From: an uncultured Gemmatimonadales bacterium
GTDB taxonomy: Bacteria > Gemmatimonadota > Gemmatimonadetes > Gemmatimonadales > GWC2-71-9
Assembly (NCBI GenBank): GCA_963842945.1
Contig: CAWJIM010000019.1
Coordinates: forward strand, 448,001 to 512,000
Length of the DNA: 64,000 bases
Reading direction: 5' to 3'
The notes beneath the pieces were generated by a model. That model ran no database searches and was not told the origin of the DNA. It was given only the letters and a program-made list of their open reading frames with translations. The position numbers were made by a program, and so were the translations under genes. Within the stretch, counting starts at the first letter, position 1. Every line of letters starts with the position of its first letter. Shown here one piece after another: positions 1-6,143 of the stretch.

Positions 1-12
1 TACGAGGAGTGA
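1..12 (+). CDS. Probable 3' end of an upstream gene (partial)
   Basis: TAC GAG GAG TGA at the window start; too short to identify. Confidence 0.3.
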   Translation, partial: YEE

Positions 13-31
13 GAGATGGAAGTGTCGGACG

Positions 32-144
32 GGCGGTAAGGCGGTAAGGCGGTAAGGCGGTAAGGCGGTAAGGCGGTAAGGCGGTAAGGCGGTAAGGCGG
101 TAAGGCGGTAAGAGCGGTAAGGCGGTAAGGCGGTAAGGCGGTAA
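32..144 (+). repeat. Tandem octamer array (GGCGGTAA) x~14
   Basis: 10 perfect units at 32-111, one 9-nt variant GAGCGGTAA at 112-120, 3 perfect units at 121-144. Confidence 0.97.
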
Positions 145-200
145 GGGACCGGTAGTTTAATTGATGCTAGTAAGACCTATGGCAGGCGTAATGATTCTGC

Positions 201-552
201 ATGCCACCGTATGAGAGATTCGATGCCTGGAAGATGGCCCATCGACTTGCGCTTCAAGTTTACGAGATCACTAACGGTTGGCCGGCTGCAGGAGCGCTAT
301 GGACTGACTGCACAACTTCGTCGGGCCGCAATCTCAGTACCGACCAATATTGCTGAAGGGTCGGCTAAGCGCGGATCGCGAGAGCTCAGACGCTACCTTG
401 ATATAAGCCTTGGCTCCCTGTCTGAGGTCTCCTATCTCCTCAGGTTCGGGCAAGACTGTGGTCTGCTTTCGCCTTCTGACTTCAAGGCTCTGGATGGTTT
501 GAGAGATGAGGCCGGAAAGCTCACGTGGCGCCTGTATGCAACTGTAAAGTGA
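201..552 (+). CDS. Four helix bundle protein (23S rRNA IVS protein / Avd-like family); one frameshift near 283-290
   Basis: ATG201 frame reads MPPYERFDAWKMAHRLALQVYEITNGWP, then the 211..552 frame continues ERYGLTAQLRRAAISVPTNIAEG...YLDISLGSLSEV, the family signature. Confidence 0.9.
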
Positions 553-559
553 TCCCGAC

Positions 560-590
560 GTACCGCCTTACCGCCTTACCGCCTTACCGT
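560..590 (-). repeat. Inverted copy of the octamer array (TTACCGCC) x~4
   Basis: GTACCGCC TTACCGCC TTACCGCC TTACCGT is the reverse complement of the array at 32-144. Confidence 0.95.
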
Positions 591-603
591 CTAGTATTCC
601 CCC

Positions 604-1317
604 ATGCCATCCCCTGAAAAAATCGCATACATCACCGGTGCCACCCAGGGCATCGGCCGAGCCACCGCGCTGGCATTGGGGCGCGCCGGCTACGCCGTCG
701 GGCTGCTCGCCCGGACCGAGTCGGACGTGGATGATCTCGCCAATGAGTTGTCCCGAGAGGGCATAGAAGCTGCCGGTGCGGCCGCCGACGTGGGCAACCC
801 GGATCAGGCCCAGCGAGCGGTGGACGAGCTGACCCGGGACCTGGGCGACGCCGACGTGCTGGTCAACAACGCCGGGGTGCTCATCGCCAAGCCGTTCGAG
901 GAACTGACGCTGGAAGAGTGGGACGTCACCATGGGCACCAACGTCCGGAGCCTCTACCTGATGACCCGGGCGGTGCTCCCCGCCATGCGGCGGCGCAAGC
1001 GGGGCGCAATCATCAATGTGGCCAGCCTCGCAGGGCGAAACGGTTTCGTCGGCGGTACCGCTTACACCGCCTCGAAGCACGCGGTCCTCGGATTCAGCCG
1101 CTCCCTCATGCTGGAAACCCGGAAGGAGAACATCCGGGTCATCGCCATCTGCCCCGGCTCGGTCGACACCGGCCTGATCCGGGACCAGTCGATGTTGAAG
1201 TCCGACCCCCTGCGTATCCTCAAACCCGCGGATGTCGCGGAGACCATCGTGCACGCGATCAATCTTCCCGAGCGCGCCCTGGTGAGCGAGCTGGACATCC
1301 GGCCGACGAATCCGTGA
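604..1317 (+). CDS. SDR family oxidoreductase
   Basis: TGATQGIG Rossmann motif, NNAG, YTASK catalytic motif. Confidence 0.95.
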   Translation: MPSPEKIAYITGATQGIGRATALALGRAGYAVGLLARTESDVDDLANELSREGIEAAGAAADVGNPDQAQRAVDELTRDLGDADVLVNNAGVLIAKPFEELTLEEWDVTMGTNVRSLYLMTRAVLPAMRRRKRGAIINVASLAGRNGFVGGTAYTASKHAVLGFSRSLMLETRKENIRVIAICPGSVDTGLIRDQSMLKSDPLRILKPADVAETIVHAINLPERALVSELDIRPTNP

Positions 1318-1532
1318 GGAACGTGGGGAACGTGCTGGTCTCGCGTTGCATCTGCCGTAACACCCCGTTTTCGGACCTGTTGCCACGGGCTCGTGCGGGC
1401 GGCTGGAGCCTGCAGGATCTCATGACTGAGACCGGCTGCGGTGCTCAGTGCGGCCTGTGCCGGCCGTATCTCCGCCGCATGCTCCGCACCGGGGAGACCG
1501 TGTTCCACGAGCTCTTGTCAGAGGACGCATGA
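1314..1532 (+). CDS. BFD-like [2Fe-2S]-binding protein (start may be GTG1332)
   Basis: CIC...TGCGAQCGLC cysteine pattern; overlaps the SDR stop and the kinase start. Confidence 0.8.
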   Translation: MRNVGNVLVSRCICRNTPFSDLLPRARAGGWSLQDLMTETGCGAQCGLCRPYLRRMLRTGETVFHELLSEDA

Positions 1533-3542: not shown

Positions 3543-4943
3543 ATGCACCGCCGTGCTCGCACGGCCATTCTGCTCGCCGGATTCTGGCTGGGAGCAGCAT
3601 CCAACGTTCAAAGCCAGGTCAGCACTCGGGTCGATTCGCTGAACCGAGCGCTATCGACCTTGTCCGCGCGCATCGATTCGCTCGAAGCCGGCCTCTGTCC
3701 GGCAGCGGCCGGACCCGCGGTTCCTGGCCCCTCGGGAGACCGGGTGACCGACACTCTCGCCGCCCAGGTCCAGTCACTGGAGCGCAGACTGGCCGCCCTC
3801 CGACAGGTGCGCTGCGCGCCGGGCGCGGCTCCCGGCCGGCACCGACCCAGACATCCGGATTCGACTGACGATCTCGCGGCGATCCGGGCGGCCGCCGCGC
3901 AGGCCGCGGGACAGGCCGGCGGCGGAGGTCAAACCGATTCCACGAAGCCGAAGTCGGAGACTGCACCATCCCAGCAAAGCCCTCGGGGAGCCAACCTCCT
4001 CAACCCCGAGATCAGCGCCACGGGTGATATCCGGCTGGTGGCCCGGGAGGGCCAGCAGGAGAACACCTTCGTGCCCCGCGAGTTCGAGTTTGCCTTTCAG
4101 TCGGCCCTCGATCCGTACTCCAGTACCAAGATCTTCATGACCTTTGAGGATGAAGAAGTGGGGATCGAGGAGGGCTACATCTACTGGACGGGACTGCCGG
4201 GCCGGCTTCGAGTCGATCTCGGGAAATATCGCCAGCAGGTGGGCGATCTGAACCGATGGCATCTGCATGCATTGCCCGAGACCGAGTATCCGCTGGTGTA
4301 TCAGCGGTACTTCGGAGAAGAAGGTCTGTCCGGGGTCGGTCTCTCGCTTTACACCACGCTGCCGTTCTCCCTGGCCGGTGCCACCCACGAGGTCTGGTTG
4401 CAGGGCACCACCGTCAACAGCGATCCGATGCTGAGCGGAGGCCACCCGTTGGTGCTGCTGGGACGGCTGCAGAACTTCTGGCAGCTCAGCCGGAGCACCT
4501 ATGCCCAGCTGGGAGTGACCGGACTCGGCGGCAACCACGACGATGCCGACCTCCGCAGCCGGGTGGCAGGACTCGACTTCCGGCTGACCTATCGCCCGCC
4601 GCAGTCCGGCACCCGGCGCGACGTCACCTTCCGTGCCGAAGGGTACCGCTTCCACGCCGATGAGATTGGAGTCACCACCAATCGGTATGGCGCGTTTCTG
4701 GATCTGCAGGCACGAACCAGCCAACGCTGGGTCTTCGGCGCCCGCTACGATTATGTGGAGGCGCCGCGGGGCCCGGATGATACCGAATGGCGAATTACTC
4801 CGAACCTCACCTGGTGGCAGAGTGAGTTCGTTTTTCTCCGGCTGGAAGGCGAGCACCGGCACAGCGATCTGGCGGGGACCCAAAACCTGTTGACGTTCCA
4901 GGCGGTGTGGGCCATGGGCCCGCACAAGCATGAGACGTATTGA
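3543..4943 (+). CDS. Outer-membrane beta-barrel protein associated with metal uptake
   Basis: Signal peptide, coiled-coil N-region, LNPEIS motif, WHLH, amphipathic beta strands, C-terminal GPHKHETY; GGAGG SD. Confidence 0.75.
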   Translation: MHRRARTAILLAGFWLGAASNVQSQVSTRVDSLNRALSTLSARIDSLEAGLCPAAAGPAVPGPSGDRVTDTLAAQVQSLERRLAALRQVRCAPGAAPGRHRPRHPDSTDDLAAIRAAAAQAAGQAGGGGQTDSTKPKSETAPSQQSPRGANLLNPEISATGDIRLVAREGQQENTFVPREFEFAFQSALDPYSSTKIFMTFEDEEVGIEEGYIYWTGLPGRLRVDLGKYRQQVGDLNRWHLHALPETEYPLVYQRYFGEEGLSGVGLSLYTTLPFSLAGATHEVWLQGTTVNSDPMLSGGHPLVLLGRLQNFWQLSRSTYAQLGVTGLGGNHDDADLRSRVAGLDFRLTYRPPQSGTRRDVTFRAEGYRFHADEIGVTTNRYGAFLDLQARTSQRWVFGARYDYVEAPRGPDDTEWRITPNLTWWQSEFVFLRLEGEHRHSDLAGTQNLLTFQAVWAMGPHKHETY

Positions 4944-4944
4944 A

Positions 4945-4988
4945 GCAGCGGGGCAGCGGGGCGGCGGGGCAGCGGGGCGGCAGGGCAG
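4945..4988 (+). repeat. Tandem octamer array GC(A/G)GC(G/A)GG x~5.5, containing four GGGG tracts
   Basis: GCAGCGGG GCAGCGGG GCGGCGGG GCAGCGGG GCGGCAGG GCAG immediately after the stop codon at 4943. Confidence 0.9.
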
Positions 4989-5043
4989 TCACTGAAGGCG
5001 GAGACGAAGCGATCTACTTGAGACCCATTGAAGGAATACACAT

Positions 5044-6143
5044 ATGACGTTCACATCACTGTTCATTCTCGCGGGTCTCCTGTGGAGCTGCCCCGCTGCC
5101 GAGCGGCCCCGCTGCCTCGCTTGAAAGCCCCGCTGCCGAGCGACCCCGCTGTCGCGCCTCCTAAGCTCGTCACCAGCTTGACGACCTACGGCGCCATTGC
5201 GCGAGAGATCGTCGGCGACCGGGGCACGGTGACCTCCATAGCCCAGGGCGACGAGGATCCCCACTTCGTGCAACCGAAGCCCAGCTTCGTGGCGATCCTC
5301 CGCGACGCCGATCTGTTTGTGACCACCGGTATGGATCTCGAGCTCTGGGTGCCGGCGCTGCTGGACCGGGCCGGTAACCGAAAGATCATGGACGGCGGTC
5401 CCGGATATGTAGCAGCATTTCGCGGAATCGATCTGATGGAAGTGCCCACCTCGCTCAGCCGAGCCCAGGGCGACATCCACGTCGATGGCAACCCGCACAT
5501 TCACACCGATCCCGTAAATGGGATCATCATCGCGCGGAACATCCTGGCGGGCCTCCAGCGCGTCTCCCCCGAGAACGGCTCGTACTACGCCGGCCGGGAA
5601 CAGGACTTCGAGAAGCGGGTGCTGGAAGCCACGATCGGCGCCCCACTGGTCGGCATCCTGACTCCCGCGACCGCCTTCGATCTCCTGAAATCGAACAAGC
5701 TCCTCGATTTCCTGGCGCAGCAGAAGTATCAGGGCAAGCCGCTCACTGCGCAGCTCGCAGGCTGGCTCAAGCAGGCCGAGGTTTTCCGGGGCAAGCAGAT
5801 GGCCTGCTACCACAAGGAGTGGGCCTATTTCAGCCGGCGGTATGACATCGAGTGCGTCACCTACATCGAGGCAAAGCCGGGTATCCCGCCGACACCCGGC
5901 CACGTCCAGGAAGTCATTCAGCTGATGCGGGACCGAAAGATTCCCGTGCTCTTCTCCTCGAATTACTTCGACCGTAAGCAGATCGAGCAGGTGGCCGAGC
6001 GCACCGGCGCCAAGGCGGTGATCGTGCCGGAAAACACCCAGGGGGCACCCGGGGTGAATACCTACTTCGACCTGATGAACACCTGGGTCAGTAATCTGGC
6101 TCTCGGGTTCAAGGACGTAGCGCTCACCGCCGGAGCCCGATAA
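5044..6143 (+). CDS. Metal (Zn/Mn-type) ABC substrate-binding protein, ZnuA/TroA family; frameshift near 5100
   Basis: ATG5044 after AAGGA gives the signal peptide MTFTSLFILAGLLWS; EDPHFV, GDIHVDGNPHIHTDP and YH motifs in the 5028..6143 frame. Confidence 0.9.
5087..5152 (-). repeat. Degenerate inverted octamer array (CCCGCTGC) inside the SBP N-terminal coding region
   Basis: CCCGCTGC at 5092, 5108, 5129 and CCCGCTGT at 5145, interleaved with degenerate units; reverse complement of 4945-4988. Confidence 0.8.

Follow-up and report, generated by a model that had tools for sequence, protein, structure and literature searches.

Why should one small gene lie between two tandem arrays of the same octamer that face each other in opposite orientations? 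The question is raised by positions 32-590 of the window, our term for the whole 64 000-nucleotide stretch analysed here (G000:C19:448001-512000), which is part of contig CAWJIM010000019.1 in the 87%-complete assembly of an uncultured Gemmatimonadales bacterium (4.30 Mb, 24 contigs, 65.0% GC). The enclosed gene encodes a four-helix-bundle protein of the PF05635/TIGR02436 family, a large family with solved structures for which we know of no function outside diversity-generating retroelements. The initial annotation had seen a cassette resembling the intervening sequences (IVSs) of ribosomal RNA (rRNA), looped out of an operon mRNA by RNase III, and had offered binding sites or the ends of a mobile unit as the alternative. 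We tentatively favour another answer: that the segment is a DNA cassette, the arms of which are likely to be the recognition repeats of the protein itself and to act at the level of DNA, not through RNase III excision. The arms are likely to be the nucleic acid partner of the protein because the RNA-cutting enzyme of the first reading was not found, the type of repeat tracks the type of protein and the cassette is flipped in some relatives.

The 5' arm (32-146, plus strand) consists of 14.2 copies of GGCGGTAA as defined by Tandem Repeats Finder (TRF; period 8, 98% matches, score 221), comprising 13 exact units and one unit with a one-nucleotide insertion at about 112-120. An AT-richer inner 5' spacer, which begins GGTAGTTTAATTGATGCTAGTAAG, occupies 147-200 and leads to the gene at 201-552, also on the plus strand. 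The 3' arm (561-589; TRF, period 8, 100% matches) holds 3.6 copies of TACCGCCT, which is the 5' unit reverse-complemented, and extends from eight nucleotides past the stop codon of the gene to 14 nucleotides before the start codon, at 604, of a short-chain dehydrogenase/reductase (SDR) gene. The bracketing of exactly one gene by oppositely oriented octamer arrays, as first described, is thus confirmed by the TRF copy numbers and by a PF05635 match. The arms share a perfect complementarity of 29 nucleotides. Among 3000 random windows of the same genome, given the same ungapped score, the maximum was 19 and only one reached 16 or more. On folding of the plus strand the 3' arm pairs with part of the longer 5' array (minimum free energy -234.4 kcal/mol) and the same arm-arm pairing is obtained with the minus strand (-204.4 kcal/mol), so that the stem of about 30 base pairs with a slidable register proposed earlier is predicted on either strand. 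The gene was also correctly described as more AT-rich than its neighbours: the interior of the cassette has a GC content of 53.6%, below the 65.0% of the genome and the values of the SDR gene (66.5%) and the upstream DUF885 gene (68.5%).

The gene, of about 116 codons, is frame-broken. Its start frame covers 201-287 and the frame of 211 then continues through the stop at 550-552, with PF05635 profile positions 2-24 in the former and 25-103 in the latter. The match, at 80.1 bits against a cut-off of 33.8, is split across the two frames by one extra base, and alignment with the intact orthologue of the related genome G035 places this +1 frameshift near 286-288. That orthologue scores 94.1 bits against TIGR02436. 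The extra base may be an assembly error or a real break. The SDR orthologue of G035 (L006:2024-2714) is likewise split over two frames in tblastn, which suggests single-base indel errors in these few-contig assemblies. As judged from their coding sequences, the four-helix-bundle proteins of the cassettes are under purifying selection (median dN/dS 0.12, range 0.05-0.25, 55 pairs). The closest solved structure is entry 2GSC, with five chains (E = 6e-22 over residues 3-95). It represents XCC0516 of Xanthomonas campestris, which is described in part of one report as a toroidal homopentamer (PMC4990558).

The initial annotation had proposed that inverted arrays be sought around other genes of this family, and they are indeed enriched there: in these soil bacteria most members of the family are so bracketed. 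All seven PF05635 genes of this genome lie between inverted tandem arrays, built of 7-, 8-, 9-, 20- or 28-mers; the paralogue on contig C20 has units of the GGAGTCG type. When 160-nucleotide flanks are taken, six of the seven score at least 16, a value attained by one of the 3000 random windows; the remaining gene has decayed, and its arrays are farther out. We compiled 102 distinct cassettes, seven from this genome, 28 from a search for related loci and the remainder from genomes of the genus, of which 32 of 41 had a match. The related-locus search gave 29 loci, almost all in metagenome-assembled genomes (MAGs) of Gemmatimonadales; one, L034, was omitted because it repeats locus L006 of G035. 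The 102 are counted without two duplicates; six had flanks that were too short, leaving 96 that could be tested. The null distribution was taken from 400 random genomic windows, since the pairing of flanks from different cassettes is inflated by shared units. The arm score lies above the 99th percentile of these windows in 82 of the 96 cassettes and above their maximum in 80. Contigs of short-read MAGs (G011, G002; L010) end within or beside arrays; arrays therefore fragment assemblies, and counts of cassettes in MAGs are underestimates.

The repeat unit tracks the lineage of the protein, and does so even among paralogues at different sites of one genome. Over 3089 pairs of cassettes with no detectable shared flanks, the Jaccard similarity of arm 6-mers correlates with protein identity (rho 0.40), a value that none of 500 permutations reached, and rises from 0.017 at less than 40% protein identity to 0.195 at 70-80%. 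When only paralogues of the same genome are compared (55 pairs, 16 genomes), one of 500 permutations attains the observed rho of 0.38. In the 172 non-syntenic pairs whose proteins are at least 60% identical, the arms are 3.1 standard deviations more alike than background, whereas the corresponding figure for the 5' spacers is 0.4. The arms are alike where the spacers are not and are therefore not merely carried along as neutral DNA. Three paralogues of this genome illustrate the point, sharing the arm core GCGTGAGCGG while their spacers are unalignable.

The history of the cassette can be followed at the SDR site. An SDR orthologue is present in at least 32 of the 36 genomes of the genus searched, and a tree of 20 SDR genes contains a clade of nine (support 98/97) in which arrays precede the SDR gene in all members and another clade, of 11, with no arrays. 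Several members of the array-free clade have about 20 nucleotides between the upstream stop codon and the SDR start. Of the nine genomes, ours and G035 carry the gene, six have gene-less hairpins and one has a contig that ends inside the array; the closest relative, G011 (96% SDR protein identity), is among those with a gene-less hairpin. The four-helix-bundle genes of our genome and G035 are orthologous, with 80% protein identity, and belong to different subclades. The simplest history, as read from the tree, is one old origin, with arrays already present in the ancestor of the nine-genome clade, and repeated loss of the gene with retention of the arms. Both gene-bearing genomes retain GGCGGTAA; in the gene-less ones the unit has drifted to GGCGGTCA, GCGGTGA, GGTGAGA or GGTGAAC, at times differently in each arm. 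The initial annotation had named, among the things that would together tell against it, syntenic fixity of the gene in relatives and arrays no commoner here than around random genes: the gene is syntenic in one relative, G035, and the arrays are enriched. The gene upstream of SDR differs among relatives, with at least four arrangements (L005-L023), and synteny breaks therefore coincide with the hairpin site.

Elsewhere, comparison of our genome with G011, where flanks are 85-89% identical, shows hairpin sites that are kept and contents that have changed; the cassette between mutM and secG has diverged far more than its flanks. At this mutM-secG site the gene is antisense in our genome and four relatives and co-oriented in G061. 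The 47 pairs of cassettes with flanking genes in common comprise 30 with the same orientation, 16 with opposite orientations and one that is unclear. Inversions between relatives mean that DNA-level events occur. With arm units that track the protein lineage and a cassette that is inverted between relatives, the alternative first offered, that of binding sites or the ends of a mobile unit, fits better than looping-out from an mRNA.

The arrays also occur without a gene. Neighbouring array pairs in this genome are complementary in 112 cases and direct in 29, and the spacers between paired arrays have a bimodal length distribution, with one mode at 25-100 nucleotides and the other, gene-sized, at 400-600. 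Inverted pairs that lack a gene and have loops of up to 200 nucleotides number 85, and their loops are unique and mutually unrelated. The G-rich (purine-rich) arm comes first in 83 of them, the C-rich arm in one, and one is balanced; the purine-rich arm likewise leads in 78 of 82 cassettes. These hairpins are located in short intergenic gaps and adjoin start codons. The units of the gene-bearing cassettes of this genome recur in three to 131 other arrays. Between 31 and 44% of its gene-less hairpins match the arms of its own cassettes, compared with 10-15% for random sets of seven foreign cassettes, and only three to nine of 500 draws of such foreign sets reach the value for its own.

Several other explanations have to be weighed. 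The one proposed at the outset holds that the arms pair in a transcript, that RNase III cuts the stem and that the gene-bearing loop is released from the flanking mRNA. It draws on the protein family, on a stem-plus-ORF (open reading frame) design like that of the Coxiella IVS and on the stem predicted for both strands. The enzyme, however, is missing from the searched genomes: RNase III (TIGR02191) was found in none of 41 genomes of the genus, 19 of them at least 90% complete, and in none of 46 genomes of the class, many of them 97-100% complete, whereas other classes of the phylum had it in 14 of 15 genomes. There the matches are at E of about 1e-62, and the search therefore works on this phylum. 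PF14622 was not found in our genome (87% complete), nor PF00636 in five genomes that included a single-contig genome of the class, and tblastn of three RNase III proteins of the phylum against our genome returned nothing at E <= 1. Excision by RNase III is therefore unavailable here, as far as the searched genomes show. Even so, 38 of 45 genomes of the class lacking RNase III have PF05635 genes, as do six of 15 RNase III-bearing genomes of the phylum. The 23S rRNA of this genome is one uninterrupted match of 2955 nucleotides. The genomic setting was also misjudged, since the gene had been placed between co-oriented genes: the upstream DUF885 gene is on the minus strand, with its start outside the window at G000:C19:447949, and diverges from the SDR gene on the plus strand, so that the cassette occupies a divergent intergenic region. 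With the four-helix-bundle gene taken as plus, the upstream and downstream neighbours of 57 callable cassettes are (-,-) in 22, (+,-) in 20, (-,+) in eight and (+,+) in seven, counts in which related genomes are not independent. The gene is thus antisense to both neighbours in the first of these groups and co-oriented with both in the last, and is rarely embedded co-directionally in an operon. A stem selected in the sense RNA would give more G.U than A.C mismatches. We counted 261 mismatches of the G.U type and 230 of the A.C type in the arms of the 96 cassettes, with G.U in excess in 44, A.C in excess in 39 and equality in 13. One cassette with a ratio of 10:1 (C22) was considered as a wobble signal of an RNA stem and rejected, being offset by L053 (2:9) and L025 (3:10). 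We regard release of the loop by RNase III as very improbable.

A serious rival, albeit one that we judge unlikely, is an RNA hairpin that stays uncleaved. A long stem in the transcript would protect against 3' exonucleases or would insulate or attenuate neighbouring genes; in one variant the protein may bind the first-transcribed G-rich arm, as (GGCGGUAA)n RNA, and steer folding in the manner of TRAP. The nearly invariant lead of the purine-rich arm, in gene-less pairs and cassettes alike, would suit a process running 5' to 3' along a single strand; the hairpins occupy short gaps beside start codons; and a period of 7-9 nucleotides would fit a single strand contacting a ring of subunits. Against this stand the lack of a sense-strand bias of G.U over A.C, the absence of terminator-like tails and of any Rfam family (the search at the locus gave only one sub-threshold chance match elsewhere) and the inversions, which show DNA-level events. 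An uncleaved hairpin and a DNA-level cassette are not mutually exclusive. It is improbable that we are dealing with a non-autonomous element of the miniature inverted-repeat transposable element (MITE) kind, with the arrays as terminal inverted repeats moved in trans and the gene as passive cargo. At one site the element is indeed present in some relatives and absent from others, its cargo has a low GC content and more than one cargo family occurs in the same packaging. The 85 gene-less loops are nonetheless unique and so do not form a family of nearly identical copies, and our genome and G011 keep the same hairpin sites while contents change. In agreement with the initial annotation, no transposase or reverse transcriptase was present among the five neighbouring ORFs scanned, and PF00078, the reverse transcriptase family, gave no match in the 87%-complete genome. 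Its single PF01797 gene (Y1, IS200/RAYT-like; L144:1501-1839, G000:C21:326712-327050) is followed by a GC-rich hairpin and no tandem arrays adjoin it. Nor would passive cargo explain a unit that tracks the protein while the spacers do not, or the low dN/dS. Equally hard to sustain, and if anything less probable, is the idea that the array hairpins arise on their own and act as landing pads, small selfish genes lodging in their loops. The excess of gene-less hairpins (85, against about ten with a gene) and the nesting of other palindromic elements in hairpin loops of relatives would be expected, but random lodging would not make the arm unit track the protein lineage across sites, and the orthology of the SDR-site genes in two subclades fits ancestral presence followed by loss.

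We return to the cassette as a DNA-level partner of its own protein, for which the following steps may be envisaged. A pentameric protein would bind the 7-9-nucleotide unit, probably on a single strand because of the strict polarity with the purine-rich arm first, and this binding would keep unit and protein matched. Recombination between the arms, with conversion, would keep them complementary and flip the gene; slippage would alter the copy number of the unit; and loss of the gene would leave the gene-less hairpins. A number of observations weigh against this scheme. Any pair of inverted repeats might undergo inversion through ordinary RecA recombination, with the protein uninvolved, and co-inheritance together with self-renewing arrays could account for part of the link between unit and protein, related genomes not being independent samples. 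The seven PF05635 paralogues of this genome are only 24-73% identical and so give no sign of recent movement within it. At a threshold of 0.5, 59 of the 85 gene-less hairpins match no cassette of the genome, and abundant units (AACGGTG in 49 arrays, GGAGCTG in 38 and CGGAACGA in 19) have no gene-bearing copy in the 87%-complete assembly. Arms of significance were lacking within 230 nucleotides in 14 of the 96 cassettes. Families of the phylum that do have RNase III also carry PF05635 (six of nine genomes in f8), and RNA processing may therefore matter elsewhere.

A second protein family shares the packaging. All three PF13366/TIGR04256 (GxxExxY) genes of this genome, one intact and two broken, have inverted arrays on both sides as well, with units of the CACAGAGG, CACGGAGG or ACGGATGA type (L030:287-691 on G000:C24; L031, G000:C19:168241-168441; L032, G000:C18:60365-60574). 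It is possible, and we put it forward with more reserve than the reading of the locus itself, that TIGR02436 and GxxExxY proteins pair with short tandem repeats in a sequence-specific manner, each protein lineage having its own 7-9-nucleotide unit, an invertible hairpin built of that unit in which its gene lies and gene-less families that it seeds or maintains. Neither a transposase nor RNase III would be needed.

If that were true, we would have a widespread counterpart of the REPIN/RAYT systems and an explanation both for an orphan protein family and for unexplained tandem heptamer and octamer repeats. Tandem repeats of 7-9 nucleotides are, to our knowledge, an old and unexplained feature of many bacterial genomes, and the present locus and its relatives tie the PF05635/TIGR02436 family to them. 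The tie has testable properties: the unit tracks the protein lineage, the cassette flips between relatives and cassettes are common in a class in which RNase III was not found. That they are common where the enzyme was not found separates the design from the rRNA intervening-sequence model that lies behind the name of the family. There is a practical side, since arrays that break short-read assemblies cause these genes to be under-counted in MAGs. What is new here is that the unit goes with the protein, that arms and spacers differ in conservation, that cassettes are inverted between relatives and that no RNase III was found in the searched genomes. In the literature consulted, which did not extend to subscription journals or supplements, there was no description of such array packaging around PF05635 or GxxExxY genes outside rRNA.

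Some further features deserve mention. The genes neighbouring the cassette encode the DUF885 protein, the SDR protein, a BFD-like protein and a GAF histidine kinase. A scan of window positions 1-1400 for sigma-70 promoters and intrinsic terminators gave no sites. Assembled contigs from public sequencing runs, all of them short, matched conserved stretches of genes or the arrays of other loci, and none spanned position 286 or an array junction. The window holds a gene-less pair at 4945-5151, in which 5.5 copies of GCAGCGGG (4945-4988), a unique loop of 96 nucleotides and a GCTGCCCC-type array (5085-5151) follow one another. This hairpin comes directly after the stop of the ORF at 3543-4943, and from an ATG at 5045 in its loop a frame resembling a signal peptide extends into the 3' arm and ends at a TGA. 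Palindromic units of the GTCATCCTGAGCGAAGCGAAGGATC type are nested in the loops of array hairpins in several genomes. They are found upstream of SDR (L005:1240-1500, L007, L008, L012, L022) and in our genome at G000:C19:574311-574495, C3:186211-186341 and C4:95707-95851; one genome of the array-free clade has them at the same intergenic site without arrays. Three hairpins with CACGGAG/ACGGATAA arrays have non-coding loops of 142-184 nucleotides (G000:C20:2878-3183, C6:6399-6588, C22:28364-28604) that share an internal inverted repeat (GTTCAACAGCACACC ... GGTGTGCTGTTGA-like), and these loops could be a small structured RNA or the remnant of a lost cargo. Lastly, a DUF4440 gene of 140 amino acids lies between complementary GGTGAAC-type arrays (L033:240-662, G000:C23:161577-162229). 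It may be a third kind of cargo, or may be flanked by two half-elements through chance.

How does the cassette compare with systems already described? The nearest in construction is the 23S rRNA IVS of Coxiella burnetii, which, in the part of the account drawn on here, has a 28-base-pair stem with tandem heptamers in its 5' region and is cut by RNase III in mid-stem in vitro (PMC4990558). The same source, again in part, treats excision by RNase III as the defining step of rRNA IVSs (PMC4990558). Shared with our cassette are an S23p/PF05635 ORF enclosed as a loop by a long stem of terminal inverted repeats, the tendency of this ORF to decay and tandem short units in the 5' part, which in Coxiella are two to three copies of GACAGAT in strain-variable number (PMC4990558). 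Unlike an IVS, the cassette lies between protein genes and not in rRNA, its arms are much longer octamer arrays and RNase III was not found in the class searched. It is built like an ORF-bearing rRNA IVS but fails on location and on the excising enzyme.

The protein has a homologous four-helix-bundle fold to Avd of the diversity-generating retroelements, and the Avd structure 4DWL is stated to be like 2GSC in an excerpt of PMC10053308. Unlike the Avd systems, the cassette has no reverse transcriptase and no pair of template and variable repeats, and PF00078 was not found in the genome. For the arrays, the closest likeness is with the G-rich tandem heptamers of Xanthomonas (GGGAATC) and Nostoc, which are intergenic and in 70-75 Xanthomonas cases form two convergent sites on opposite strands, according to the passages searched in PMC4692102. 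The Xanthomonas pairs described there have the same G-rich-first polarity as ours (PMC4692102). Those passages treat the heptamers as G-quadruplex-forming and contain no mention of four-helix-bundle proteins, S23 or IVSs (PMC4692102). The units here differ in being mostly of eight or nine nucleotides and in being tied to a gene family.

Invertons are invertible segments of DNA bounded by inverted repeats. The cassette resembles them in that the segment between its inverted arms is found in opposite orientations at the same site in relatives; it differs in having no invertase gene nearby, in its arms, which are long tandem arrays, and in that the difference in orientation is known from comparison between genomes. 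The best promoter-like score in the inner 5' spacers of 82 cassettes shows no excess over shuffled sequences (6.93 against 6.80, with scores of at least 9 in two against 2.3). In systems of repetitive extragenic palindromes (REPs and REPINs) with a REP-associated tyrosine transposase (RAYT), a short repeat stands in inverted copies on either side of one gene and is also scattered through the genome in inverted doublets without a gene, its type differing from one gene lineage to the next. The cassette fails the defining test of these systems because the enclosed gene is not a transposase; in place of a Y1/HUH enzyme it encloses a four-helix-bundle or GxxExxY nuclease gene, and in place of single palindromes it has tandem arrays of 7-9 nucleotides. 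In its organization it is nevertheless like REPIN/RAYT, with a repeat that flanks its gene in inverted copies, is dispersed through the genome, including as gene-less doublets, and is specific to the lineage of the gene.

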